In this document: positions 3,574 through 60,906 of the stretch, in pieces | Numbering within the stretch: position 1 is the first letter of the stretch | Layout of the letters: every line of letters begins with the position of its first letter | From: Candidatus Moraniibacteriota bacterium | GTDB lineage: Bacteria > Patescibacteriota > Minisyncoccia > Moranbacterales > UBA1568 | DNA: 64,000 bases | Assembly (NCBI GenBank): GCA_052035095.1 | Contig: JBPOHW010000007.1 | Coordinates: 1,705 to 65,704 of the forward strand | Reading direction: 5' to 3' | The notes under the pieces: generated by a model | What the model saw: the letters and a program-made list of their open reading frames with translations, nothing else | What the model was told of the DNA's origin: nothing | Databases searched by the model: none | Position numbers and translations under genes: made by a program

Positions 3574-4626
3574 CTAGAACCTCCCCGCCGCAACCACGGT
3601 GAGCGTATCGGTATAATCCGTCGCCGCCGCCTGGGTCGCCACAATCTTGGCGCGCTCGATAAGCGTGAGCACATCGCCGTCCGTCGTGCCGTCCGACGCC
3701 GCAATGGGCTGAAACGTTGTCGAGAGCGTTCCACCGGACGTTGTGTTCGTTCCATTGTACTCGGCGCCCCAGTTTGATGCTTGGGTAATTGTTCCCGTCC
3801 CACCGCCATCCGTCGTCACATTCACATCAAGCACATAGCCAGTGGTCGAAGCGAGATCACTCGGTGTATTGTCAACGCTCCCCGCAGTCGCAATACTCGT
3901 CCCTGCCGAAGCCGACGCGAGTCCAGCATTTAAACTCTTCACCCATGCGACCCACCCACCGGCGGCATTGGTCGTCATCGTCGCCGTCACGCCAGTCGAA
4001 GAAGCCGTCGTCGTCGAGAGCGTCCCAATCGAATCGGCATTGGCGGAAAGCGCGAATGAGAACGTCGAAGGCACCGTCGCGGTCACCACAACCTGATCAT
4101 CACTGATCACTGAAAGCGCGTATCCGGACGAATCAATCGTCGCCGCGGCGCCCGTTCGCGTCGTCACGGTCCCGGTCTGATTGTTCCCCGCGGCGCCCGT
4201 CGTAAGCGTATTGGTCCCCGAAAAATTGAAACAATACGTCGTACCCACCACGAGATCCCCGGATGGGAAGGTTACGGTTTTCCCCGACACCCCCGTCGCC
4301 GTTGCAATACTCACCCACGCCGTCGTTCCGTTGGGAAGATTGGTCGTCGTCACCGTCCAATTGGAAGCCGTGGTATTTACGGTAAAATCCGTTCCCGCAA
4401 CCGTCGGAAAGGTAATTTGCACATCCGCTTCCGTTCCCACCGTCGCCGGACGCGCGCACACCATCCCACCCGTCGTCGTCGAATCGGAGAGTCGGTCGAG
4501 CCGAATATAGACTTCGGTAAAGTTCGCCGCCTCGGCACGATTTCCAAAAAACAAAATAGGAAGCGCCGCGACGCCAACAAGAGAAATAATTCCAATCAAA
4601 GAAAGCGTTCGAGAAAAAACACGCAT
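3574..4626 (-). CDS. Thr/Gly/Ala-rich secreted surface protein with WxL-like C-terminus (tentative)
   Basis: Signal peptide MRVFSRTLSLIGIISLVGVAALPILFFGNRAEA. Low-complexity T/G/A/S-rich body. C-terminus DYTDTLTVVAAGRF resembles the YTxTLTW-type terminus of WxL-domain proteins, with V in place of W. Confidence 0.6.
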   Translation of the reverse strand: MRVFSRTLSLIGIISLVGVAALPILFFGNRAEAANFTEVYIRLDRLSDSTTTGGMVCARPATVGTEADVQITFPTVAGTDFTVNTTASNWTVTTTNLPNGTTAWVSIATATGVSGKTVTFPSGDLVVGTTYCFNFSGTNTLTTGAAGNNQTGTVTTRTGAAATIDSSGYALSVISDDQVVVTATVPSTFSFALSANADSIGTLSTTTASSTGVTATMTTNAAGGWVAWVKSLNAGLASASAGTSIATAGSVDNTPSDLASTTGYVLDVNVTTDGGGTGTITQASNWGAEYNGTNTTSGGTLSTTFQPIAASDGTTDGDVLTLIERAKIVATQAAATDYTDTLTVVAAGRF

Positions 4627-4683: not shown

Positions 4684-5763
4684 CTAAAAACTCGCCGAAA
4701 CGACAACTGTCAAGAGGTCGGTATAATCGCTCGCCGCGGGTGTAATGGACGAGGATTTCGCCTTGAGAAGAAACGAACCGCGCCCGCCAACGAGAGGCGC
4801 ACTCGATGAGAAAATTTCCCGAAGCGAGGTATCGATGACGCCGACATTCGCCGCTGCGCCATTATACGGCGACACAAAGGCGAGCGGACCACCCGAAAAC
4901 TGTGAAACCGATGACCCCTGCGCGCCATAGCCGCTCGTCGCAACCGCGAGATCCGCCGTCGCCGAAGGAATTGCCGATCCGGCAGACACGCTCGAAAGTC
5001 CCGCGTTCGCGCTCGATACATAGGCCTTGCCACCCGAAGTTCCATTGGTCGCAAAGTCCACCCACACTTTTTCAGGTCCATCCGTCACGGTATTCGCGAC
5101 GAGATTGCCAAACGCAACCGCAAACGGCGGATTGGTCTCCGTATCCGTTCCGGCAACATCGATATCAAAGGAAAGTGTCGGCGCGACCGTCGCCGCCGAC
5201 GCCTCCGGTCCATAGCCCGTCTCGGTAAACTTCCCCTGCATCGCCTTCACCTTCACTTTGTAGGTCGTACTCGAAAGAAGCCCGATCACAAGCTCACCAG
5301 ACGCCCCACCCCAGTTGGCAAAAGTCTGATAGTCCTCAATTCCCAAAGTCGCCCCCGCGGTATTGTCACTCTGCACGTAGAGTGTCGTCACCCAGTTGTC
5401 CGGAGAAATCGCAATCGCGAACGTCGCGTCCGACGGATTGTCGCCATCATCGAGTGTCAAAAGAAGCTTATTGTAATAGCTCGAAGGATTGGTGAAGGCT
5501 GGCGCCGGAGGGACATTCGCCTGTTGGGTAAAAATGAGTCCCGGTCCCATATCGTAATTCGTCCCGGACAACTGATCGCTATTCGGCTCTCCCGTGATCG
5601 CGTCCATCGCGTAATTCGCCGAGCTCATATTCTCCTCTCCTCCCGACCCGAAACCGTAACTCTTCAGTTGATAATTCGTACTCGCCGGGAACGCGAAGAG
5701 AAGCAGAAAACTCGTCGTCACAAAACTTTTTTGTATTTTTTTGAAAAAATTTCCAAACAACAT
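4684..5763 (-). CDS. Thr/Gly/Ala-rich secreted surface protein, paralog of 3574..4626
   Basis: ORF 4684..5943 trimmed to ATG at 5763 (MLFGNFFKKIQKSFVTTSFLLLFAFPAS signal peptide). C-terminus SDYTDLLTVVVSASF parallels the neighbouring paralog. Confidence 0.6.
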   Translation of the reverse strand: MLFGNFFKKIQKSFVTTSFLLLFAFPASTNYQLKSYGFGSGGEENMSSANYAMDAITGEPNSDQLSGTNYDMGPGLIFTQQANVPPAPAFTNPSSYYNKLLLTLDDGDNPSDATFAIAISPDNWVTTLYVQSDNTAGATLGIEDYQTFANWGGASGELVIGLLSSTTYKVKVKAMQGKFTETGYGPEASAATVAPTLSFDIDVAGTDTETNPPFAVAFGNLVANTVTDGPEKVWVDFATNGTSGGKAYVSSANAGLSSVSAGSAIPSATADLAVATSGYGAQGSSVSQFSGGPLAFVSPYNGAAANVGVIDTSLREIFSSSAPLVGGRGSFLLKAKSSSITPAASDYTDLLTVVVSASF

Positions 5764-6202: not shown

Positions 6203-6631
6203 CTATTTTTCAAGGACGCCGATCTGCAATTTTTCGAGACCCATTTCCTGTCGCGGTTGTCCGCCGTGCTTCCCGACAAACGCCTCAGTCGCGTCCTTGC
6301 CGCACATAGCGAGAATTTTGTCCGGTCCGCCCGGATGCGTTTTGATAGCCGGCGTCACATCGTATACCTGCCCGCGCACGATTGTCCAACAGCTCGCCTC
6401 GTTCCCATGTTCCGAAACCTGCGCCACCGTATACCCGGGAAAATCTTTCGAGCCTGTCGTTTCCTTCATGACCGTCCCGGCTTTTTCCAAAGAATCATTC
6501 ACTTCGGTTTTTATACCCTGTTTCACATCATCCGCCACTTCCGTCGGCGTATCCCCCTTCATAAGTCGCGTCCCGACATAGATCACCGCGACAACCACCA
6601 GCACACTCGCAATAATTTTTCCCATACGCAT
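6203..6631 (-). CDS. Cytochrome b5-like heme-binding domain protein with N-terminal TM anchor
   Basis: 142 aa. N-terminal TM segment. HPGG motif and downstream CGKDATEAF...H pattern typical of the cyt-b5 heme-binding fold. Confidence 0.7.
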   Translation of the reverse strand: MRMGKIIASVLVVVAVIYVGTRLMKGDTPTEVADDVKQGIKTEVNDSLEKAGTVMKETTGSKDFPGYTVAQVSEHGNEASCWTIVRGQVYDVTPAIKTHPGGPDKILAMCGKDATEAFVGKHGGQPRQEMGLEKLQIGVLEK

Positions 6632-13602: not shown

Positions 13603-13788
13603 CAGGACTTCCACATTTGTCAAACCTGCCTGCCGGTAGGCAGGGGGAGAGAAATCAACGGAGGGGCGGGCAGACTTACAAAAAACGCGAGAGAAAGCTT
13701 CTTTGGGAGGTTATTTACATCCATAACACAAAAACTCACCTACCAAGCCCCGGAGCATTTCTCGAACGTGACAAATGTGGAAGTCCTG
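13603..13788. repeat. Repeat family 1, copy 3: conserved core closed by a 20-bp perfect inverted repeat; carries an extra GC-rich palindrome (13625..13644)
   Basis: Flanks caggacttccacatttgtca / tgacaaatgtggaagtcctg. Internal cctgcctgccggtaggcagg hairpin sits immediately 5' of the core. Confidence 0.85.
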
Positions 13789-40777: not shown

Positions 40778-41707
40778 TCACGTCGTCGCTGGCGCGAAAA
40801 ACTCCGCAATTTGTCGAACGATGACGAGCGACGCGAGCGCGACCACGATACCGAGGAGTGCAAAAGTGACAATCTTCTTCGCCACCCCGATCCGATTCAT
40901 ATCCCCTGCCGCGCCGAGGAACATAATGCCCCCGATAACGAGGAAAATAATCGCGAGAATCCCTACGATTCCAAGAAGGAAATTGAGGACCGAGAGAAGG
41001 ATATCCGCGGCGCTCTTTGCACCCGAGACCTCCGGCGGAACCGTGCCGCCCCAGCCCAAGACCGTCGCGATTTCCTTGAGGAAGGTCGGCGCCAAAATCC
41101 CGATCGCGAGCCCGATGAGGGCCGCCGTGATCGCGAGCTTCGCCGCCGTCACCTGCGACTGTCGCCCGCCGGACGTAATGTACAAGACCGCTCCAATCAC
41201 GATAAAGACGAGCGAAAGCACGACAATGACACCCTGCAAAGCATACAACAACGCTGTCAAAACTTCTTGTACCGTATCATATTTCAAGGGATTGGGAAGC
41301 GTTATGCTCACCGACGAGCCGGATCCGGTTGTTGTCCCTCCACCACCCGTACCCCTTGGGGGACAATAATTTGGTTTCGTTGGATCCGTACATATAGATT
41401 TGCATCCTGTCTGTGTCGTATCATCATCCGCAGTACAAGTTGTCTTACAATAACTCGCATTGCACGTGGAGGAAGAACTGCTTGTTTCGCAGCAAATATA
41501 CCCTTCCGAACTACTGCAATTATCAAACGTTCCCGATTTAATAACTCCAGGAGAGGGGCAGGTTTCTTGGCATACGCATGTTTTTCCGCTACTGCATGAT
41601 GCCTGACATGTCGCCGCTTTTGCCCCTTCCGGTGCCACTGCAAACGCCCCCAACACCAGCACCCCCAACACGGCCGCTACCCTCCCAAATTGTGCCATTG
41701 TTTCCAT
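40778..41707 (-). CDS. Cys-rich secreted protein fused to two tandem TrbC/VirB2-like pilin modules
   Basis: Signal peptide (METMAQFGRVAAVLGVLVLGAFAVAPEGAKA). Roughly 110-aa Cys/Ser/Thr-rich region (CQASCSSGKTCVCQETC...), Gly-rich linker, then two pilin-like hydrophobic hairpin modules (…LYITSGG… and …MFLGAAGDMNRIGVAKK…). Confidence 0.65.
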   Translation of the reverse strand: METMAQFGRVAAVLGVLVLGAFAVAPEGAKAATCQASCSSGKTCVCQETCPSPGVIKSGTFDNCSSSEGYICCETSSSSSTCNASYCKTTCTADDDTTQTGCKSICTDPTKPNYCPPRGTGGGGTTTGSGSSVSITLPNPLKYDTVQEVLTALLYALQGVIVVLSLVFIVIGAVLYITSGGRQSQVTAAKLAITAALIGLAIGILAPTFLKEIATVLGWGGTVPPEVSGAKSAADILLSVLNFLLGIVGILAIIFLVIGGIMFLGAAGDMNRIGVAKKIVTFALLGIVVALASLVIVRQIAEFFAPATT

Positions 41708-41723
41708 AATGAGTAGTGAGTAG

Positions 41724-41741
41724 ATAGTAGCGAGTAGATAG
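41724..41741. repeat. Left 18-bp terminal inverted repeat (ATAGTAGCGAGTAGATAG) of the four-helix-bundle cassette; embedded in AGTAGNN heptamer tandem repeats
   Basis: Exact reverse complement at 42229..42246. Region 41711..41741 reads gagtagtgagtagatagtagcgagtagatag. A second arm at 41774..41793 forms a long hairpin with 41719..41738. Confidence 0.8.
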
Positions 41742-41802
41742 AAAATAAAATGTTTTCTACCTACCAAATACTGTCTACTCGTTGCTATCTACTGATAAAT
41801 AC

Positions 41803-42180
41803 CTAAATATTATTCCTGACAGACTTCATTAGGCCGGAGAGAATTTTACTTACCTGTATCGTTTCCTCAGCAAGGGCGTCAAAAATATTTCTTTCAAGAA
41901 ATCCGATATCTCGTGCAATAAGCAGTTGGTTTTGAAGTTCAAAAATAGATCCTCTGGAAATAGCGTAAAATTGAAGTTTTTCTTTGGAAGAGCTCCTGCC
42001 AAATCCCTCTGCAATGTTGGAAGTAATGGAAATAGCACACCGACGTATCTGATTCGTAAGAGAAAAAATTTCCGCCCTCGGAAAAGACTCAGTTGCCCGA
42101 TAGACTGCAAGCACCAATTTGTGCCCTTTCTGCCACACTACCAAATCCGTAAAAGACTGTATTTTTGATATATCGCCCAT
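41803..42180 (-). CDS. Four-helix-bundle protein of the 'S23 ribosomal / rRNA intervening-sequence protein' family (PF05635-like)
   Basis: 125 aa. MGDISKIQSFTDLVVWQKGHKLVLAVYRATESFPRAEIFSLTNQIRRCAISITSNIAEGFGR... Local base composition is more AT-rich than the flanking pilin genes (by eye). Confidence 0.65.
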   Translation of the reverse strand: MGDISKIQSFTDLVVWQKGHKLVLAVYRATESFPRAEIFSLTNQIRRCAISITSNIAEGFGRSSSKEKLQFYAISRGSIFELQNQLLIARDIGFLERNIFDALAEETIQVSKILSGLMKSVRNNI

Positions 42181-42228
42181 ACAACCAAATACTGAAACAC
42201 CGAATGTTCTCTTGCTAGATACTCCCTA

Positions 42229-42246
42229 CTATCTACTCGCTACTAT
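42229..42246. repeat. Right 18-bp terminal inverted repeat (CTATCTACTCGCTACTAT) of the four-helix-bundle cassette
   Basis: Reverse complement of 41724..41741. A 10-bp direct repeat CCAAATACTG (41764..41773 and 42185..42194) flanks the ORF just inside the IRs. Confidence 0.8.
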
Positions 42247-42248
42247 TC

Positions 42249-43091
42249 TCACCCTCCCCACGCCGTCCCGCGCAACAAAGCATCGATCGCGATAATAATC
42301 ACGAGCCCGGCGAGCGCAACAATCACGCCCACGATGGAAAATTTCATATTCCGCTTCGCGGTCTCGATCATATTCATATTCCCCGCCGCCGCCAAGTACT
42401 GAATGCCCGAAATCACAAACGCGATAATCGCGAGGAATCCGAAGAGATAGAGCATCCACTTCATAAGATTGGTGACGATAAGCGCCACCGACGTTTCGGA
42501 GAGCCCCGTATTGAGCGGGAAACACACCCCCGCGTATTCCTTGAACTTCGCCGGATCGCACTTCACCGCCGTCGTCCCCGACCCGGTAGTACCACCCGTC
42601 TTGCAAAACTTCTTATTTGTCGCTTGTGAAGCGCATTGCGACGCACTGCACGTCGTATCCTCAGTCTCCCCCGTCACGCAAGCCGCCTTACAACCCCCAC
42701 CGGTACAGGATGAGGAAGAAAGGGTTTTACAACACACCAATTTATTATCTAAAGCTCTGCAATAACCATTGTCAGTAGAAACGGTAGTTTTTGGAGATAC
42801 ACAACCGGACATACTCTCACACGAACACGTCCCACCCGAACCGCAATTGCTGGTACAAGTGTTTCCGGAAGCAGTGACACAACACACTTGACCCAAACTG
42901 GATTCACAGTGATCTGAATCTGGACCAGATATTCCGGAAGAACACGTAGCACTCGCGGGAATACAGGTTCCGCTGCTCCCATTGTACGTACATGTCTGAG
43001 CAAAGACATCTCTGCCAAAAAACAAAGCCCCTGCTACAATGAAGCAAGAAAAAACAAAACTCAAAAACGAAATTCTCTTCATAAGAAACAT
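42249..43091 (-). CDS. Cys-rich secreted protein fused to one C-terminal TrbC/VirB2-like pilin module
   Basis: Trimmed to ATG at 43091 (MFLMKRISFLSFVFSCFIVAGALFFGRDVFA signal peptide); TGATG overlap with the upstream pilin gene. Roughly 150-aa Cys-rich region, then …GIQYLAAAGNMNMIETAKRNMKFSIVGVIVALAGLVII…. Confidence 0.65.
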   Translation of the reverse strand: MFLMKRISFLSFVFSCFIVAGALFFGRDVFAQTCTYNGSSGTCIPASATCSSGISGPDSDHCESSLGQVCCVTASGNTCTSNCGSGGTCSCESMSGCVSPKTTVSTDNGYCRALDNKLVCCKTLSSSSCTGGGCKAACVTGETEDTTCSASQCASQATNKKFCKTGGTTGSGTTAVKCDPAKFKEYAGVCFPLNTGLSETSVALIVTNLMKWMLYLFGFLAIIAFVISGIQYLAAAGNMNMIETAKRNMKFSIVGVIVALAGLVIIIAIDALLRGTAWGG

Positions 43092-43465
43092 CAAAAATAC
43101 GAATCGGCGCTCAACCACACATCGACTGCCTGAACGATCACGTACCCCATCAGCGCGACAATCACCCCGACGATAGACCACTTCATCGCTTCTTTGGCCG
43201 TTTTGATCTGACCGTCATTTCCGGCGGCCGTAAGATAGAGGATGCCCGAAATCACAAAGCCGATAATCGCGATGAAGCCGAGAAGTCCAAGGATCCAATC
43301 CATCGTACTGCCCGCGATATCAATAATAGGCGCAACTGGCAATCCCGACTGCATCGGCCCCGTAAGCGCCGGGTTCTCCCCCGTCTGCGCAAGCGCGCCA
43401 AGTGGCAGAAGCGCCATTCCCCCAGCTATTCCCCTCCGAACCCGCGAAACTATTGTGTGTTTCAT
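43091..43465 (-). CDS. TrbC/VirB2-like small pilin-family membrane protein
   Basis: 124 aa. Signal peptide, then two hydrophobic helices separated by LYLTAAGNDGQIKTAKEAMKWS. Paralogous to 43555..43926 and 44105..44485. Confidence 0.7.
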   Translation of the reverse strand: MKHTIVSRVRRGIAGGMALLPLGALAQTGENPALTGPMQSGLPVAPIIDIAGSTMDWILGLLGFIAIIGFVISGILYLTAAGNDGQIKTAKEAMKWSIVGVIVALMGYVIVQAVDVWLSADSYF

Positions 43466-43554
43466 ACAATATATTTAAAATAAGCTTTTTTCACTTTAAC
43501 GAAGACCAGCCTACCGGCAGGCAGGAATGCGCGAAGTGAGAAAATCTTAAAAGA

Positions 43555-44915: not shown

Positions 44916-45539
44916 TCACGAAATCCGTTCTTTGGTTTCAAGTGTAATTGCCGCCGTGCCAATATATTGGCTCACTTCTTGCGTAAGCGACTCCAAATAC
45001 CGTGGAAATTTTTTGGCGTACTCGGCGAACTTTTTCCGACCTATGGAGCGAAGATCCAATTCTTGTAAGCCCATATTCCCTTTCCCTCGCGCTACCATAT
45101 AGAGCATATCCAGAAGCGCCTTCTCCGGTTCGGCAATGTACATGCCATTTTCCAGCCGATACCCGAAAAAAAGATTTTCCTTCACCTGCCGAAATTCAAT
45201 CGCCGTACCGAAAATACTCATCCTCTTGGTTTGTTTGAGCGTTGCAAACGTCTCCGTCGCCGGCATTTGACTCAAAATTCCATACCGAGAAAGCGCGCTC
45301 TCAAAAGAGAGATAGGACGGGTAGTAGAGTTGATTGGCGATTTTCGGTACATCGATAAGTGCCGCGCTCGAGGCATACACGCCGCGTTTCAAACGAGTGA
45401 GCGCGCCCTTTTCCGTCAAGCGAGAAACCGCCACTTTCAAACTCGGTCGCGAAAGCGCGGTTATCTTCTCCAAATCGGCCACCGTAAAGTAGTCTCGATT
45501 CAATGTCTGCAATCTCTGCATGAAGTCAAAGGTGGTCAT
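44916..45539 (-). CDS. abiEi: AbiEi-family type IV antitoxin / transcriptional regulator (wHTH N-terminal domain)
   Basis: Trimmed to ATG at 45539 (ATGA overlap with the abiEii stop). MTTFDFMQRLQTLNRDYFTVADLEKITALSRPSLKVAVSRLTEKGALTRLKRGVYA is the typical AbiEi N-terminal fold. Confidence 0.6.
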   Translation of the reverse strand: MTTFDFMQRLQTLNRDYFTVADLEKITALSRPSLKVAVSRLTEKGALTRLKRGVYASSAALIDVPKIANQLYYPSYLSFESALSRYGILSQMPATETFATLKQTKRMSIFGTAIEFRQVKENLFFGYRLENGMYIAEPEKALLDMLYMVARGKGNMGLQELDLRSIGRKKFAEYAKKFPRYLESLTQEVSQYIGTAAITLETKERIS

Positions 45540-46216
45540 AGACTTTCTTTCTTCAGCCAACGGTCGAGGAGTTGCCACTTCCCTTGCGGCAAGAGCCGGT
45601 GCAAATCGCCGCGCACCTCATGTACCGAATACTTCCCAAAATTCATCTCGGGTGACTCGCCGCGCTGACTCCTGATAAACCACAAATCGAAAATATCACG
45701 AACACGAAGCGGATCGATACTCTCTTTTTCCCGTTCAATTTGCGCGATGGTCGCCACTTGCGCCAAAACCGTTACCGGAGTCACCTCGCTCGAAAGCTGT
45801 TTGAGAATATAATCCTCATTCTGTCGCCATTCTTTTTTTCGACGTGATATTTCCACCTTGATGCCAAGCGGACGCTCTAGCGTCGGATCGGTAATCACAA
45901 AACGAGCATAGAGCGTATAGTATTTCTGCAAAGCTTCATCAAGAGCAACATACGGTACGGACTTCGCCGTGTCATGGCACCACTCTTGAAACTTCGGAGC
46001 GGAAATATCGACGAGTTGCGTAAAATCCAAATCATCGGAGTATCGGTACGACCCATACGCAAGTCGAAGCGCCGTCCCTCCGCGAAAAACAAGATCCTTC
46101 CCGAAGTTGCTCTCAAAAATACGGCTCAAAAGAAGCATTTCATACTCTTCCCACACGATACGATCCACCGAGATTCCCAGCTGTTTCTGCTTTTCCAGTG
46201 CCAATTGTTTGTTCAT
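45536..46216 (-). CDS. abiEii: AbiEii/AbiGii-family nucleotidyltransferase toxin (DUF1814)
   Basis: FRGGTALRLAYGSYRYSDDLDF NTase motif. 226 aa. Lies upstream of abiEi, which reverses the canonical order. Confidence 0.65.
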   Translation of the reverse strand: MNKQLALEKQKQLGISVDRIVWEEYEMLLLSRIFESNFGKDLVFRGGTALRLAYGSYRYSDDLDFTQLVDISAPKFQEWCHDTAKSVPYVALDEALQKYYTLYARFVITDPTLERPLGIKVEISRRKKEWRQNEDYILKQLSSEVTPVTVLAQVATIAQIEREKESIDPLRVRDIFDLWFIRSQRGESPEMNFGKYSVHEVRGDLHRLLPQGKWQLLDRWLKKESL

Positions 46217-53692: not shown

Positions 53693-55396
53693 ATGATCGA
53701 TATGAAAGAATCACAAAAAATCCCCCTTCCCGTCCTTGAAACCCTTTTCGCACTTGAAAGGGCTGGGTTTGAGGCGTTTATCGTGGGCGGATGCGTGCGC
53801 GATCTCATCTTGGAAAGAGAGCCCAAAGACTGGGACATCACCACCAATGCCCTCCCCGAAGAAATTCAAGCCATATTCCCCGACAGCTTCTATGAAAACG
53901 TTTTCGGCACCGTCGGCGTAAAGGTCAGACCCTTCATGCCCAAAGGAAAAGAAGATCGCGAAGAAGACGTGATCGAAATCACCACCTACCGCGCCGAATC
54001 CGGCTACGACGACAAGCGCCACCCTTCAAACATTTCCTTCGTCAAAACCGTCGAAGAAGACCTTGCCCGCCGCGACTTCACGATGAACGCGATCGCGCTG
54101 CGAACTGACAACTCACAACTTACAACTGACAACGCTTCACAACTTCCAACTTCCAACTTCCAACCGACAACTCGCAACAAAAACACGACATTGAAATCCG
54201 AAATTGAAAATTGTGAATTGAACATTGAAAATTCCCTCCCGAACTACCCACTACCCACTACCAACTACCAACTTATTGATCCTTTCAACGGTCAACGAGA
54301 TATCAAAGACAAAACCATCCGCGCGGTTGGCGATCCAGACGCTCGCCTCGGCGAGGACGCGCTCCGAATGCTCCGCGCTGTCCGATTCTACGCCGAACTC
54401 CGCACGCCGACGCCGCTTCCCAAAGAGGCCTTTATGGAAAAGGGAAATGAAAGCGATTTGCTCCACCATTCATCCGACTGGACTATCGAATCGGAAACCT
54501 GTGCGGCGATCAAGCGGCGAGTCGGCGACATTCGCGCCATATCAATGGAGCGCATCGGAGACGAACTCGGGAAAATCCTCCTCTCACCAAGCCCCGCCCA
54601 CGGCATCGATATGTTGCGGAAAACCGGACTCTTGTCGCGCATCCTGCCGGAACTCGAAGCGGGCGTCGGCGTCGGACAAAATCTCCACCATATCTATACC
54701 GTCTACGAACACAATCTCCGCGCCCTCGCAACCTGCCCTTCAAAAAAGCTCGAAGTACGCCTCGCCGCCCTTCTCCACGACGTCGGGAAGCCCCAAACCA
54801 AGCGCGGCGAGGGCTACCGATCCACCTTCTACAATCACGACCATGTGGGCGCCCGCATCACCCGAAGACTCCTCGAGCGACTGCGCTTCCCCGCGAAACT
54901 CATCGCAAAAACCGTGCTCCTCGTTGACAACCATCTCTTTTACTATAATGTAGGGGAAGTGACCGCCGCCTCCGTCCGCCGCCTCATCCGACGCGTGGGA
55001 CTCGAGAATATGCGCGACCTGATGGACATCCGCATCGGCGACCGCCTCGGATCCGGCACACCCAAGGCAAAGCCCTACAAATTGCGCCACCTAGAATATA
55101 TGATCGAGAAGGTCTCAAATGATCCCGTCTCGGTCAAAATGCTCGCCATAAACGGCAGTGACGTGATGAAAGAACTCGCGATCACTCCGGGACCCAAAAT
55201 CGGCGCTATACTGGACGTCCTCCTTGCGGAAGTTATCGAAGATCCGACAAAAAACACCAAAGAATCCCTCTTCGAACGCGCCAAAGAACTCGAGAAAGAA
55301 GACTTGAACCGCCTCCGCGAACTCGCCAAAGACAAAATAGAAGAAAAACGCGCGTCAGACGATCAAAAAGTCAAACACAAACACTGGGTGCAGTAA
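53693..55396 (+). CDS. cca: tRNA nucleotidyltransferase (CCA-adding enzyme; poly(A) polymerase head + HD domain) with low-complexity insertion
   Basis: Head domain GGCVRDLIL...DWD and HD domain (HDVGKP). In-frame insert TDNSQLTTDNASQLPTSNFQPTTRNKNTTLKSEIENCELNIENSLPNYPLPTTNYQL is encoded by simple DNA repeats (54100..54260). Confidence 0.8.
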   Translation: MIDMKESQKIPLPVLETLFALERAGFEAFIVGGCVRDLILEREPKDWDITTNALPEEIQAIFPDSFYENVFGTVGVKVRPFMPKGKEDREEDVIEITTYRAESGYDDKRHPSNISFVKTVEEDLARRDFTMNAIALRTDNSQLTTDNASQLPTSNFQPTTRNKNTTLKSEIENCELNIENSLPNYPLPTTNYQLIDPFNGQRDIKDKTIRAVGDPDARLGEDALRMLRAVRFYAELRTPTPLPKEAFMEKGNESDLLHHSSDWTIESETCAAIKRRVGDIRAISMERIGDELGKILLSPSPAHGIDMLRKTGLLSRILPELEAGVGVGQNLHHIYTVYEHNLRALATCPSKKLEVRLAALLHDVGKPQTKRGEGYRSTFYNHDHVGARITRRLLERLRFPAKLIAKTVLLVDNHLFYYNVGEVTAASVRRLIRRVGLENMRDLMDIRIGDRLGSGTPKAKPYKLRHLEYMIEKVSNDPVSVKMLAINGSDVMKELAITPGPKIGAILDVLLAEVIEDPTKNTKESLFERAKELEKEDLNRLRELAKDKIEEKRASDDQKVKHKHWVQ

Positions 55397-55431
55397 GCTG
55401 ATAGCTGAAAGCCGACAACCAAAAGCTGGAA

Positions 55432-55502
55432 CGGGGCATCGTATACCGGTAGTACGCATGATTCGGGTTCATGTAGACTGGGTTCGATTCCCAGTGCCCC
55501 GA
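55432..55502 (+). tRNA. tRNA-Pro (anticodon CGG), no encoded CCA
   Basis: cggggcatcgtataccggtagtacgcatgattcgggttcatgtagactgggttcgattcccagtgccccga. Anticodon loop uuCGGgu. C1:G72 and A73. T-arm CTGGGTTCGATTCCCAG. Confidence 0.85.
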
Positions 55503-55647
55503 CTGAAGTGAAACGCAAGGAGTGGGCAAGCACGCCAACCTACCTACCGGCAGGCAGGCTGCTTGGCGTGCGCCTGGGAATCGAAGGGATTTTCCTTAAA
55601 TGGAAAATCCCAGGCTCGAAGAGGATTCCCAGTGCCCCAAAAAAGAT

Positions 55648-55974
55648 ATGAAATTCACCATCAAGGACATCACCGACAATCCCGTCAATCTCCTCCGGCG
55701 CGCCGGATATGCTTTTCAGTTCAAGAATGGCGAAGAATCGAGTTTCATTCGTCCCCTTGCCGCGGCAGGCTACCCGCGCTTCCATATGTACGTGAGGCTT
55801 CGCGGCGAAGACCTGGAAATAAGTTTTCATCTCGATCAAAAAAAGGAGACTTACGGCGACGATACCCGTCACCACGGCGAATACGAAGAATCCGGCGCCC
55901 TCAAACAAGAAGCCGACCGGATTAAGTCTTTTTTGACACCTGTCGACGAAAACTCAAGTTTCAGTCCCATATAA
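55648..55974 (+). CDS. Hypothetical protein
   Basis: ORF 55600.. trimmed to ATG at 55648 (MKFTIKDITDNPVNLLRRAGYAFQFKNGEESSFIRPLAAAGYPRFHMYV...). 108 aa. Confidence 0.45.
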   Translation: MKFTIKDITDNPVNLLRRAGYAFQFKNGEESSFIRPLAAAGYPRFHMYVRLRGEDLEISFHLDQKKETYGDDTRHHGEYEESGALKQEADRIKSFLTPVDENSSFSPI

Positions 55975-56050
55975 GAAACGTTGTGGGGTATCAAATCAAA
56001 CACTTCTCATTCATTGCTCCCTGCTCATTGTTCATTGAAAATTGACCTCT

Positions 56051-56133
56051 GCCGGGGTGGCGAAATGGCAGACGCACCGGCTTTAGGAGCCGGCGATGGC
56101 AACATCGTGGAGGTTCAAGTCCTCTCCCCGGCA
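56051..56133 (+). tRNA. tRNA-Leu (anticodon TAG), long variable arm, no encoded CCA
   Basis: gccggggtggcgaaatggcagacgcaccggctttaggagccggcgatggcaacatcgtggaggttcaagtcctctccccggca. Anticodon loop uuUAGga. Variable stem cgatg/catcg. T-arm GGAGGTTCAAGTCCTCT. A73. Confidence 0.85.
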
Positions 56134-56234
56134 CAAAAAAACCGTCTCTCGATCAAAAAAACGTTCCGTGATACATTTTGAGCAGTGAAATAGCAGTACT
56201 CTTACCAACTTCTTTCTTCTCCCGGAGATATCCC

Positions 56235-56756
56235 ATGAAACCGATACGCGTTTTCACCCGTCTCTTGTATCTCCTCTTCATATCCATTCTGCTTTCAATA
56301 AGTACCTTCCCTCACATAAGTGAGGCGAAGGACTGGAAACCGATACGGGAAGACCCGTCTCCGTATTTTTTTCTTGATCGACAAAGAAACGAATGGATTC
56401 TCATAGAAGGAGTGTGCGCCAAAGACCGGTCGTTTCAAAAGGGGATATCGATATATCGAAGCGTCGATGGGAAAAGCTTCTCTCCGCTCGTAATCGAGGG
56501 ATACCGCACCGAAGAAATCTCCATCAACGGCAACCTCGTGCGTCGAAATTGGATCCTCCTCAAAGATCCGAAAGATGAAATCAAATACGAGCTCTCCCAC
56601 TCAAAAATTGAGTGGGAAAAAGAGCCTCGACAGAATTATGAGGCACTCCTCCTTACGAGTGATTCCTTTGGCGATAATGGTCAGAAACCTCATGAATACA
56701 CGCGAACACACCTCTCAGGTGAAGAGATCCGGTCACTCACCATCCAAAAACAATGA
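56235..56756 (+). CDS. Secreted hypothetical protein (signal peptide)
   Basis: Trimmed to ATG at 56235 (GGAG at -8). MKPIRVFTRLLYLLFISILLSISTFPHISEA signal peptide. 173 aa. Followed by terminator 56785..56813. Confidence 0.55.
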   Translation: MKPIRVFTRLLYLLFISILLSISTFPHISEAKDWKPIREDPSPYFFLDRQRNEWILIEGVCAKDRSFQKGISIYRSVDGKSFSPLVIEGYRTEEISINGNLVRRNWILLKDPKDEIKYELSHSKIEWEKEPRQNYEALLLTSDSFGDNGQKPHEYTRTHLSGEEIRSLTIQKQ

Positions 56757-58034: not shown

Positions 58035-60647
58035 TTACCCAGAACAACTCACGCAATCGTCCTTCACTTCACCTGAAAGGCTCCGGACATAATAGACCGT
58101 TTTAATGCCGCTCTTCCATGATTTGAGATAGTAGCCGTAGAGATCCGCCGGCGAGACGCGCGCGGGATCAATCATCCACTCGAAACTAATGGACTGATCC
58201 ACCCATGGATAGATCGTGGCGATCATCTCGATCACGTCGTTCATATCAAGGTGAATATACTCCTTGTAGTACCAGAAATTTTCTTTGGAGAGCTTGGGCG
58301 CGACGCGAATCGTGGGCGCCGAGAGATTCGTCTCGACGAAATAGCGCTTGTAGATCGGGAGAAGCGCCGCCGTCGTGCCCACGACCCCCGCCGTCGACGT
58401 GTTCGGCGCGGGTGCCGTGTGATAGGCGAAACGCACGCCGTGCTTTTTCATATCGACAAAAAGCGTCTCCCACGCCTTCGGCTCATCGGTATGCTTCGCG
58501 AACCATTCTTTCTTTCGTCCCAAGAGGACGCCCTTTTCATACTCGCTTCCCTTGTAGAGCGCGTATGTTCCCCGCTCTTTGGCGAGATCGACCGACGCGC
58601 GATAGGTGGAGAAAGCGTACTGTTCGAAGAGCTTCTCGACCGCCACCCGAGCCTCTTGGCTATCATAGGAAAGCTTCCGCGTCGCGAGATACTCGGCAAG
58701 CCCCAAATAGCCAAGCCCCACGCTCCGATACCGCAAGGCCGTTCGCTCCGCCTCCTTGATGGGATAAAAATTGAGCGTGATCACATTATCAAGGACACGC
58801 ATTGCGATCGGAAATGTCTCGGTGATATCTTCTTTGGTATGTACTTTCGCCACATTGATCGATGCCAAGTTGCACACGACGAGGTCGCCCGGCTCATAGC
58901 GAATGACGATTTTCCCATCCTCGATCGCCTCACTCACGAACTTTGACGCCGAGGTATTCTGACAAATCTCGGTACAGAGCTGAGTCGAATAGATATTGCC
59001 CGCGTGTTTATTGGGATTCAATTGATTCACCGTATCGCGGAAAAACACATAGGGCATCCCCGTTTCGACGACCGCCTTCAAAAATTGCTTGAAGAGTTCC
59101 TTCGCCTTTACGGTTTTCTTCATCGTGAGCCGATCGTCGCCCTCAAGTCTTTCATACAGCGCGTCAAACTCCGTCCCGAAATGATCCTGAAGCGCCGTCT
59201 GGTGAAGCGTTTCCACCTCGTGCGGGTCAAACAGCGTCCAGTCGCCGTCTGCTTCGAGCCGCCGCATAAAGAGATCGGGCACCGAGACGGCCGGGAAAAC
59301 ATCAAACGCCTTCGATCGAATATCGCCCGTCTCGGTCTGCAAATCGAGAAAATCATGAATATCGAGGTGCCAGATATCGAGCGTCACGGAGATGGCGCCG
59401 AGTCGCGCGCCGAGCTGATTGACCGCGACCGCCGTATCATTGATAACCTTGGTCCAGGGATTCACACCCCCCGACATACCGCCGATCCCGCGAATCGCGC
59501 TCCCGCGCGAGCGAATATTTCCGAGATAGACCCCTACGCCGCCGCCAAACTTGGAAATCTGCGCCATATTCTCGACCGCATGGTAAATTCCGCGGAGATC
59601 ATCATCCACGTTGATCTTGAAGCAACTCGACAACTGATGATAATTCGTCCGCGCGTTGATAAGGGTCGGCGTCGGAAGCGAAATCTTCTGCGTCGAGCAC
59701 GCGTCATATATCTTCTTGGCAAAGGCGAGACGATCCTCCTTTTTCTCGGGAATCGCGAGGAAGAGCGCGATCGCAAGATACATTTCCTGCGGCAATTCCC
59801 ACACTACTTTGTTTGGATTCAAAAGGTACCGCTTCGCGAGCGAGAGAATCGTCGTATATTCATACTCCTCATCCCGCGCGCGCACGAGAAACTTCCCCGC
59901 TTCGAGAATCTCCTTTTTCGTATAAAACTTGTAAAAATCCTTGTAATAAAAGCCTCGCTCCACATAGTGAGCCATGAGCGCCGCAAAACTTTCGGGCGAA
60001 TAGAGCTCCGCCATCGATATTTTTCGATTCTTGGTCGCCTGCTTGTACAAGCTCCCCAAGAGAAACCGCGCCGCCACATGTTGCCAGGCGATATTCTCGA
60101 CACTCACCAAATCAATACAGGCTTTGATGAGAAGTTTATTGATATCGGACGTCTTGATATCCTCGACCAGATTCTTCTTGAACGCCTCCATCAAATCCTC
60201 AAATCGGCACTCCGATTCAAAACCGACCGCGCACTTATCAAAAATTTTCCGGAGTTTCCCGGCATCAAAGCGCTCCTTGTCGCCATGCGCCTTGGTTACC
60301 ATGAGCGAATGTTTCTCGAACTGCTGCGCCAATTTCTCGTGCTTTTCCTCGCGTTCTTCTCGGCGCTTTTCACGATAGAGAATATACGCCTTGGCCATTT
60401 CGAAGCGATTCGACCGCACCAAGTTGCGCTCCACAATATCCTGCACATCCTCAACCGAGGGCACGCGATGCACGAGAAGCTCGGTAAACACATGCTCCAT
60501 ATCGCGGATCACATTGTCGGTAAACGTCGGGATGAAGCTCTTATCCACCTCCCCGACCGCGTCCGCCGCAAGAAGCACCGCACTTTCAATTCGACTTCGA
60601 TCAAAGTCTTCGAGATCCCCGTTTCGTTTGGCTATTTTTTGTATCAT
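58035..60647 (-). CDS. nrdA: Class I ribonucleotide reductase large (alpha) subunit with N-terminal ATP-cone
   Basis: Trimmed from TTG (60668) to ATG 60647 (MIQKIAKRNGDLEDFD = ATP-cone). Catalytic region with conserved Cys/Asn/Glu context (…SSCFKINVDD…, …NLASINVAK…). C-terminal CxxC-type tail DDCVSCSG. Confidence 0.85.
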   Translation of the reverse strand: MIQKIAKRNGDLEDFDRSRIESAVLLAADAVGEVDKSFIPTFTDNVIRDMEHVFTELLVHRVPSVEDVQDIVERNLVRSNRFEMAKAYILYREKRREEREEKHEKLAQQFEKHSLMVTKAHGDKERFDAGKLRKIFDKCAVGFESECRFEDLMEAFKKNLVEDIKTSDINKLLIKACIDLVSVENIAWQHVAARFLLGSLYKQATKNRKISMAELYSPESFAALMAHYVERGFYYKDFYKFYTKKEILEAGKFLVRARDEEYEYTTILSLAKRYLLNPNKVVWELPQEMYLAIALFLAIPEKKEDRLAFAKKIYDACSTQKISLPTPTLINARTNYHQLSSCFKINVDDDLRGIYHAVENMAQISKFGGGVGVYLGNIRSRGSAIRGIGGMSGGVNPWTKVINDTAVAVNQLGARLGAISVTLDIWHLDIHDFLDLQTETGDIRSKAFDVFPAVSVPDLFMRRLEADGDWTLFDPHEVETLHQTALQDHFGTEFDALYERLEGDDRLTMKKTVKAKELFKQFLKAVVETGMPYVFFRDTVNQLNPNKHAGNIYSTQLCTEICQNTSASKFVSEAIEDGKIVIRYEPGDLVVCNLASINVAKVHTKEDITETFPIAMRVLDNVITLNFYPIKEAERTALRYRSVGLGYLGLAEYLATRKLSYDSQEARVAVEKLFEQYAFSTYRASVDLAKERGTYALYKGSEYEKGVLLGRKKEWFAKHTDEPKAWETLFVDMKKHGVRFAYHTAPAPNTSTAGVVGTTAALLPIYKRYFVETNLSAPTIRVAPKLSKENFWYYKEYIHLDMNDVIEMIATIYPWVDQSISFEWMIDPARVSPADLYGYYLKSWKSGIKTVYYVRSLSGEVKDDCVSCSG

Positions 60648-60721
60648 ACTGTTTCTTTTTGAGGTCAAAAAAACTCACCGCCCCCATGCGGAACTACAAT
60701 AAAGAAAAGCTATAGCAGAAA

Positions 60722-60906
60722 GAAATTCGCGTATTCGGCTAACCTGCCTGCCGGCAAGGCAGGGAGAAAGAAATTAACGAAGGGGCGAGCAAACGTACAA
60801 AAACCACAAACGAAAGCTTCTTTGGGAGGTTATTTCTATCCATAACATACAAACTCACCTACCAAGCCCCGGAGCATTTCTTGAACGTGCCGAATACGCG
60901 AATTTC
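60722..60906. repeat. Repeat family 1, copy 4: conserved core closed by an 18-bp perfect inverted repeat; carries GC-rich palindrome 60743..60763
   Basis: Flanks gaaattcgcgtattcggc / gccgaatacgcgaatttc. Internal cctgcctgccggcaaggcagg. Lies 75 nt upstream (minus-strand sense) of nrdA and just downstream of sodA. Confidence 0.85.

Follow-up and report, generated by a model that had tools for sequence, protein, structure and literature searches.

A conserved, tRNA-like candidate repeat element between tRNA-Pro(CGG) and a small open reading frame in Candidatus Moranbacteria

Within a 64,000-nucleotide stretch of contig JBPOHW010000007.1 (hereafter the window), we examined the segment behind a tRNA-Pro(CGG) gene, in which an earlier sequence-only reading had noticed a duplicated tRNA end and suspected an integration or excision scar or a miniature inverted-repeat transposable element (MITE). 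The host was placed in Candidatus Moranbacteria (candidate phyla radiation, CPR/Patescibacteria) via the relatives of its CCA-adding enzyme. The plus strand carries, in this order, the CCA-adding enzyme gene (53693-55396; PolyA_pol head, RNA-binding and HD domains by Pfam), tRNA-Pro(CGG) (55432-55503; called by ARAGORN and by the Rfam tRNA model with 54.1 bits), which does not encode its CCA, a conserved 108-aa open reading frame (ORF; 55648-55974, beginning MKFTIKDITDNP...) with about 940 homologs, and tRNA-Leu(UAG) (56051-56134; ARAGORN, Rfam and synteny), the conserved downstream member of the cluster that it forms with tRNA-Pro and the ORF. This gene order is conserved in relatives, and the CCA-adding enzyme gene, as a conserved upstream neighbor, was the anchor by which syntenic loci were found. 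Between tRNA-Pro and the ORF, on the same strand, lies an element of about 137 nt (55504-55640), here designated E1, which begins at the base directly after the tRNA.

The duplication that had drawn attention to the site proved exact: the 15-mer GATTCCCAGTGCCCC occurs at 55486-55500, where it forms the T-loop/T-stem/acceptor 3′ part of tRNA-Pro(CGG) (tRNA positions 57-71), and again at 55624-55638, where it forms the 3′ terminal repeat of E1. No further match exists in the 64 kb, even when up to two mismatches are allowed (0.06 expected). The two copies start 138 nt apart and are separated by 123 nt, not by the 124 previously counted. The segment had also been likened to a T-arm with a large insertion, and a T-arm-like stem with such an insertion is indeed present. 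CTGGGAATC (55574-55582) and GATTCCCAG (55624-55632) form a 9-nt inverted repeat without mismatch. Two further features had been overlooked. First, the 12 nt of CTGGGAATCGAA (55574-55585) repeat, in inverted orientation and without mismatch, TTCGATTCCCAG of the tRNA itself (55483-55494); as RNA, this inverted copy (IR-L, CUGGGAAUCGAA) inverts the T-loop plus the 3′ strand of the T-stem and was significant against shuffles (p<0.002). Second, GGGCA at 55524-55528 pairs with TGCCC at 55633-55637 and thereby closes the whole segment.

Read from its 5′ end, E1 opens with the unpaired leader UGAAGUGAAACGCAAGGAGU (55504-55523), which contains a Shine-Dalgarno-like AAGGAG motif and is identical at 18 to 20 of its 20 positions in five E1 copies. 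It is followed by the 5′ strand of the acceptor-like closing stem (55524-55528; 88% of cells paired) and by hairpin P2 (55530-55571), for which fold and alignment support a 9-bp stem, GCACGCCAA/UUGGCGUGC; the GC palindrome previously placed here is present, albeit imperfect. The loop of P2 carries a 20-nt palindromic insert (55539-55558) in the window genome only, being missing from the homologous loci L038, L001, L002 and L043. Next come IR-L (55574-55585), whose first 9 nt pair with the direct copy at 55624-55632, and an inner hairpin, GGGAUUUUCC-UUAAAU-GGAAAAUCCC (55586-55611; fold and alignment), whose perfect 10-bp stem of GGGATTTTCC and GGAAAATCCC (55586-55595 and 55602-55611) agrees with what had been read from the letters. 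A mini-hairpin with a GAA triloop, CUC-GAA-GAG (55615-55623), precedes the direct-repeat copy of the tRNA 3′ end (55624-55638), and an A-rich spacer, AAAAAAGAU (55639-55647), leads from E1 to the start codon. This spacer resembles AGAAAAUAC, the first bases of a second module, E2, found in relatives.

The segment 55504-55645 was predicted to fold into a three-way, tRNA-like structure with a minimum free energy of -61.5 kcal/mol (z = -4.7 vs shuffles), because CTGGGAATCGAA pairs with the direct copy and GGGCA pairs with TGCCC. The direct copy supplies the 3′ strands of both stems, so that the acceptor-like stem continues on this strand directly into the 9-bp T-like stem; in this predicted model the continuous 3′ strand is like that of the acceptor/T-arm stack of a tRNA, and hairpins replace the D arm, the anticodon arm and the T-loop. 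RNAalifold applied to five E1 sequences recovered the tRNA-like fold. In the consensus, 93% of cells were paired and 7 pairs had changed on both sides, a result reached by none of 500 shuffles, and pairing fell to 23-51% in slid-partner controls. Compensatory changes fall in three helices of E1. For example, the mini-hairpin reads CUC-GAA-GAG in the window and UCC-GAA-GGA in L038 (two pairs compensated), the inner hairpin is replaced in L001 by a different perfect hairpin in which both sides of 4-5 pairs have changed, and one G-C pair of the T-like stem has become A-U in L002. The G-U pairs fit the plus strand only. Furthermore, an alternative helix, mutually exclusive with this fold, joins GCCUGGGA (55572-55579) to UCCCAGGC (55608-55615) and contains two compensated pairs. 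When both folds are considered, the five positions at which the window and L038 differ all fall in columns that are pairing partners of one another. The alternative fold is weaker by 9-11 kcal/mol; speculatively, it could form as an intermediate during transcription and so prevent the inverted copy from invading the tRNA.

E1 is non-coding. The second, divergent tRNA gene that the sequence-only reading had considered as another source of the repeat was not found: ARAGORN and Rfam called tRNA-Pro itself (55432-55503) and no tRNA or tmRNA within 55504-55647. Rfam recognized no known RNA family for E1 in 54900-56300 at E ≤ 10, and no promoter or terminator was predicted within E1.

Homologs of E1 were found behind the same tRNA in L038, L001, L002 and L043, and L055 has an incomplete one. 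The covariance model built from E1 scored 124-152 bits on these homologs and found nothing else in the approximately 500 kb searched. The five distinct E1 sequences could be aligned over their whole length, and from the window copy L038 differed at 4%, L043 at 8%, L002 at 13% and L001 at 18% of aligned positions, the last value falling to 8% once the swapped hairpin was excluded. At four-fold sites of the adjacent ORF, the corresponding divergences were 14% (L038), 43% (L043), 44% (L002) and 38% (L001), so that E1 compared with four-fold sites gave Fisher p values of 3e-6 to 2e-4 for L043, L002 and L001. Over the genomes compared, identity was 84-96% in E1 and 56-86% at four-fold sites. The spacer upstream of tRNA-Pro showed no similarity by eye, even between the window and L038. 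These comparisons argue that E1 behaves as a selected, structured RNA rather than as a scar.

Syntenic loci gathered from genomes and metagenomes presented the site in five states, which bore out the suspicion that a lineage-specific, tRNA-derived insert lies here. In the first state the site is empty (L039, L003, L040 and L041), and the ATG of the 108-aa ORF lies 1-4 nt past tRNA-Pro: L039 reads ...GTGCCCCGAC A ATG (1475-1510), L003 reads GAC AGA ATG (5660-5690), and L040 and L041 read GAC T ATG and GAC C ATG (both at about 1490-1505). Since this leaves no space for a ribosome-binding site, the ORF in these relatives may be translated from a leaderless mRNA made by tRNA 3′ processing. The second state has E1 only (the window, L038, L001 and L002, the last being the same as L046-48), and the third has E2 only (L044 and L051-54). 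E2 is a module of about 93 nt that consists of TTCGATTCCCAG, a GC-rich hairpin and then TGCCCCGAC, and it too ends in the tRNA 3′ end. In the fourth state, E1 is followed by E2 (L043, and L055 with its partial E1). In the fifth, E1-like ends, AGAAGTGAAA... and ...CAGCTCGGGGAGAATAACCAAAAAAGATT, surround a 163-aa ORF (L050, 317-845), which looks as if it had been inserted into E1 or had replaced its middle. In L004 (5678-6262), a homologous ORF of about 125 aa occupies the same place between tRNA-Pro and the small ORF.

E1 thus comes and goes at this site as a unit. The E1 repeat of L043 matches the tRNA at 18 of 18 nt, through GAC, and L044 corresponds to L043 minus E1, cut exactly at the repeats; its tRNA|E2 junction is identical in L051-54. 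Elsewhere, the repeat matches the tRNA 3′ end at 15 of 15 positions in the window and L038, and it is degenerate in L001 (12 of 15) and L002 (9 of 15). Measured on the small ORF, the empty L039 is at a nucleotide distance of 0.11-0.14 from the window and L038, as against 0.16-0.18 for the E1-bearing L001. Distances among L002, L043 and L044 are only 0.09-0.12, although these loci hold E1, E1 plus E2, and E2, respectively. On the simplest reading of these sequences, modules would be lost, and perhaps gained, via recombination between copies of the tRNA 3′ end. Because the A-rich spacer behind E1 in the E1-only loci resembles the first bases of E2, AGAAAATAC, these loci may derive from an E1-plus-E2 arrangement.

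The layout of E1 matches that of the tRNA-linked repeats (TLRs) of Escherichia coli (Egan & Landy 1978; Rudd 1999; reviewed in PMC8144298). According to that review, the tRNA and rRNA operons of E. coli hold 22 TLRs at ten loci, one to five at each. The last 18-19 bp of every TLR are identical to the 3′ end of the gene just before it. For most of them no function is known, and a proposal is that the repeat serves as a signal for the RNase that processes the upstream RNA itself (PMC8144298). For comparison with E1, the tyrT-tyrV-rttR region of E. coli K-12 was taken. The rtT/RttR RNA of the tyrT operon (Rfam RtT, RF00391) is among the TLRs of this species. In each tyrT/tyrV unit, the T-arm and the acceptor start of tRNA-Tyr recur in inverted form as GGGGAAGGAU..., which pairs over 10 bp with the direct AAUCCUUCCCCCACCACCA; the interior has several hairpins, including C-GAA-G mini-hairpins, and the direct copy of the tRNA 3′ end is 19 nt long. 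The inverted/direct pairs are thus GGGGAAGGAU/AUCCUUCCCC in E. coli and CUGGGAAUC/GAUUCCCAG in the window, and the inverted copy was significant against shuffles in both. The use of inverted T-arm pairing to recognize a TLR is our own reading of the tyrT/tyrV units and not a published criterion.

E1 shares with the TLRs its position directly downstream of a tRNA on the same strand, which also holds in five relatives. It shares as well a 3′ end that repeats that of the upstream tRNA (18-19 bp in E. coli, 15 bp in the window and 18 bp in L043), an inverted T-arm copy that pairs with the direct copy and encloses hairpins that include C-GAA-G mini-hairpins, the occurrence of one or several modules per locus (a single one in the window, the E1-E2 tandem in L043 and L055), and an associated small ORF (tpr in E. 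coli, the 108-aa ORF here). On the other hand, no similarity of sequence or covariance model was detectable between E1 and the E. coli elements: Rfam RtT had no match at E ≤ 10 in 54900-56300, and the E1 covariance model had none in E. coli. E1 also differs in its extra hairpin between the acceptor-like and T-like stems and in abutting a start codon. Furthermore, 3′ maturation in the CPR host would be of the RNase Z type, and not by the E. coli route, because the host tRNA genes lack CCA.

Elements of similar layout also occur in other CPR lineages. We searched the 500 nt downstream of each of 85 tRNAs in the fetched loci for copies, 12 nt or longer, of its final 24 nt, for which we estimated about 0.03 chance matches. 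Beyond tRNA-Pro of Moranbacteria, such copies of 12-17 nt form the 3′ ends of elements behind tRNA-Pro in L021 (Paceibacteria; 6478-6617), behind tRNA-Arg and tRNA-Pro in L013 (Azambacteria; about 1150-1454 and 4353-4580 on the minus strand) and behind tRNA-Gly in L007 (1668-1800). The L021 and L013-Arg elements have the inverted-plus-direct layout, each matching the tRNA that it follows, and a relationship between their interiors (z = 9.4) shows in the common motifs GGGGUCGGGGAAAC... and GACGAGUGA; the L021 element ends in ...CACCUCGAC|AUG and thus abuts the start codon of an unrelated gene. E2, L013-Pro and L007-Gly contain a direct partial tRNA copy only, with a hairpin inserted in the T-loop (L013-Pro, about 130 nt) or after the T-stem strand (E2). 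No Rfam family was found in the L021, L013 and L007 elements (RtT gave no match at E ≤ 1), and neither the covariance model nor local alignment detected homology of E1 to E. coli TLRs or to the L021 and L013 elements. A local alignment of L021 with E. coli TLR1 reached z = 4.7, which we take as no more than suggestive, because 45 pairs were tested. A motif search for further interiors of the L021 type had no yield.

Taking these results together, we consider it rather likely that E1 is a TLR-type, tRNA-mimicking non-coding element that is co-transcribed with the tRNA and cut by tRNA-processing enzymes. In the proposed scheme, tRNA-Pro, E1, the small ORF and tRNA-Leu would be made as a single transcript, and the tRNA-mimicking end of E1 would be recognized by the enzymes that mature CCA-less tRNAs (RNase P, and RNase Z or an equivalent). 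A cut after the mimic would free a stable E1 RNA and leave the ORF mRNA with a very short A-rich leader, thus copying the ancestral tRNA|AUG junction, in which the ATG stands right behind the real tRNA. The repeats would double as recombination substrates, so that modules could be deleted or stacked between copies of the tRNA 3′ end. Mimics of tRNA that are processed within longer transcripts are represented by the mascRNA of MALAT1 and by mitochondrial tRNA punctuation. As in these systems, an acceptor/T-arm-like helix lies in a putative longer transcript, and a cut by RNase P or RNase Z could define the ends of neighboring RNAs; those systems, however, are eukaryotic or organellar, the cleavage of E1 is a prediction, and E1 is not recognized by tRNA or mascRNA models.

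Several points weigh against this explanation. Position, repeats, fold, conservation and module gain and loss of E1 were observed, whereas its co-transcription and processing are what we infer. The match to TLRs is architectural, homology of sequence to Rfam RtT or to E. coli TLRs having gone undetected. The acceptor-like stem has just 5 bp, and the equivalent of G72 is an A in the window. In L002, 4 of the 9 pairs of P2 and 2 of the 5 pairs of the closing stem are broken, so that in this genome some of the structure is either dispensable or in decay. With only five distinct E1 sequences, all from a single clade, the statistics for covariation are weak and are inflated by relatedness. Finally, the low divergence of E1 could reflect recent exchange between lineages rather than constraint, since E1 distance and host distance correlated weakly (r = 0.33).

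Among the alternatives, E1 might be a decayed tandem duplicate of tRNA-Pro, arisen from the gene or its 3′ half by unequal recombination and now a functionless pseudogene with palindromic insertions. Pieces resembling the tRNA do follow one another in tRNA order, namely GUGGGCA (vs CGGGGCA), UACCGGCAG (vs UACCGGUAG), CUGGG and then GAUUCCCAGUGCCCC, of which UACCGGCAG is no evidence for the E1 family because it lies inside the window-specific 20-nt P2 insert. L013-Pro, moreover, is plainly a partial tRNA copy with a hairpin of about 130 nt in its T-loop, and the L002 copy of E1 is degenerating. We nevertheless regard this origin as unlikely, for the leader and most of E1 are much better conserved than synonymous sites, three helices show compensatory changes, a simple tandem duplicate is not expected to hold an inverted T-loop copy, and both E. 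coli and further CPR lineages show this layout.

A little less probable again is that E1 mainly acts in cis, as a leader controlling the translation or stability of the small-ORF mRNA. It could do so by bringing AAGGAG beside the AUG across the closing stem, or by a switch between two folds in which IR-L pairs with the direct repeat or with the internal UCCCAGGC. Consistent with such a role, AAGGA(G) is conserved 1-2 nt ahead of the closing stem, the AUG lies 10 nt past it, the helix 55572-79/55608-15 has its two compensated pairs, and empty-site relatives offer no ribosome-binding-site space. The lower stability of the alternative fold (9-11 kcal/mol) speaks against this role, however, and the L021, L013 and E. 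coli elements precede unrelated genes or none.

We consider the integration or excision scar put forward by the sequence-only reading improbable. In that case, a tyrosine integrase would have acted at the T-loop/3′ end of tRNA-Pro and duplicated an attachment (att) core, and later deletion would have left about 120 bp, as in cis-mobilizable elements (CIMEs). For tRNA-targeting integrases, an identity block from the T-loop to the tRNA 3′ end is of a typical extent, and at CIMEs and other att-site remnants in tRNA genes the tRNA 3′ end is directly repeated, copies are stacked in tandem and presence is polymorphic. E1 has all of these in common with them: its direct repeat spans the T-loop (position 57) to the tRNA 3′ end and flanks the insert, occupied sites coexist with clean empty ones, and the two-module tandems of L043 and L055 resemble tandem accretion at att sites. 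The modules E2, L013-Pro and L007-Gly have the direct T-arm plus 3′ end that would be expected of an attR. Unlike CIMEs, E1 was seen with neither recombinase nor cargo, is conserved and structured instead of decaying, and contains the inverted T-loop copy, which att recombination leaves unexplained.

The searches for a mobile origin were likewise negative. A motif scan, itself a weak test, found no tyrosine- or serine-recombinase motifs in 65 window ORFs, and a Pfam scan of 10 window ORFs returned type IV secretion system (T4SS) pilin-like proteins, an AbiE pair, a methyltransferase and a pseudouridine synthase, and no integrase. Neither recombinase nor cargo was seen in about 20 occupied or related loci, including between the repeats. 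The tRNA-plus-E1 query (55432-55647) had no match in GenBank phages or PLSDB plasmids, and the 18-mer, the leader and the 3′ block were absent from IMG/VR apart from chance matches. A context-free metagenome scan with a 26-nt E1 pattern returned three contigs only, all from the L002 species and all behind tRNA-Pro. In addition, the flank after the second 15-mer in the window, AAAAAAGAT, differs from the native empty-site flank GAC-N-ATG, and conservation above the level of synonymous sites with compensatory changes is not what a neutral scar would show. A decaying attL/attR remnant is not supported; the results argue against a neutral scar and a MITE, although an integrase may have acted in the distant past. 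As for a phage attP, the one IMG/VR contig matching the 18-mer was a chance match in high-GC coding DNA without a tRNA, and the 20 matches of a 17-mer leader pattern were due to chance, all scoring 19 bits or less with the E1 model.

The proposed MITE targeting tRNA 3′ ends, suggested by the patchy distribution and by the 9-bp terminal-like inverted repeat CTGGGAATC/GATTCCCAG with its flanking direct repeat, is very improbable in general and refuted for the window, which contains a single copy in 64 kb (blastn matched only the short palindromic motif elsewhere), while all public copies lie behind the same tRNA and the inverted and direct repeats copy the local tRNA, differing with it in L021 and L013.

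In the literature searched, TLRs appear only as a feature of E. coli and enterobacteria, where they have been known since 1978 and where a function has been assigned to only three members, in rRNA operons. E1 is a new sequence family, in a new lineage, within a known but functionally orphan class. Because the same layout occurs in a CPR bacterium with unrelated sequence, with conservation and compensation, and with ends that track the neighboring tRNA in several lineages, the comparison argues that this layout would be selected for, or be the product of a general mechanism, and would not be an E. coli oddity. The natural series of empty, E1, E2, E1-plus-E2 and ORF-interrupted E1 sites shows how repeats would drive the gain and loss of modules, and the relatives in which the ORF starts 1-4 nt past the tRNA make tRNA processing, as a source of leaderless mRNAs, directly testable.

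A wider generalization, which we hold to be doubtful, is that TLR-type elements form a widespread and ancient RNA class in tRNA operons from E. coli to CPR, their antisense T-arm copies and sense 3′-end copies being tailored to the local tRNA. Were the class both widespread and functional, the significance of E1 would rise. The generalization would call for a mechanism dedicated to copying or converting the ends, or else for a function in which the host tRNA is paired with or mimicked. Such a function might be to guide RNase P/Z cleavage for leaderless mRNAs, or to act as a folding switch by which the T-arm of the tRNA is protected or sequestered, and the two covarying, mutually exclusive helices of E1 would be a real conformational switch.

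As for the neighboring genes, the 108-aa ORF has neither a Pfam family nor a sequence match in the PDB, and its AlphaFold model (predicted local distance difference test score 77) had no significant structural neighbors. Its homologs are mostly from CPR where the source names them, and the invariant motifs of the family are GYPRFH and HLDQKK.TYG..TRHHGEY. An N-terminal extension of this ORF from the ATG at 55600 was rejected, since neither frame nor ATG is conserved and L001 has an in-frame TGA. The CCA-adding enzyme contains a stretch of about 120 residues (approximately 145-260) between its Pfam head (28-143) and its RNA-binding domain (264-322), part of which is of low complexity with many N, T and Q residues. 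At 40781-43181 and 44919-46216, 9-15 kb upstream of the tRNA, lie genes for two T4SS-pilin-like proteins and for an AbiEi/AbiEii toxin-antitoxin pair, and no recombinase was seen with them.

The P2-loop insert at 55539-55558, missing even from the closest relative, L038, belongs to a palindromic motif of about 20 nt (CCTGCCTGCCGGTAGGCAGG and variants) that recurs in the window at 13625-13644, 43506-43525 and 60743-60758, for a total of 8 strand-matches where 0.2 would be expected. Judged by their flanking sequence, the three copies outside E1 seem to be intergenic, and the exact 12-mer core of the motif was absent from about 345 kb of other CPR loci; the motif might be a very small mobile palindrome, or it might serve as a binding site. 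Two of the copies open stretches of about 120 nt that are homologous to each other (13620-13740 and 60740-60860; ...gggaggttatttacatccataaca...), the second of which lies just upstream, on the minus strand, of a class I ribonucleotide reductase gene (58035-60668). These stretches could represent a shared leader, promoter or small RNA.

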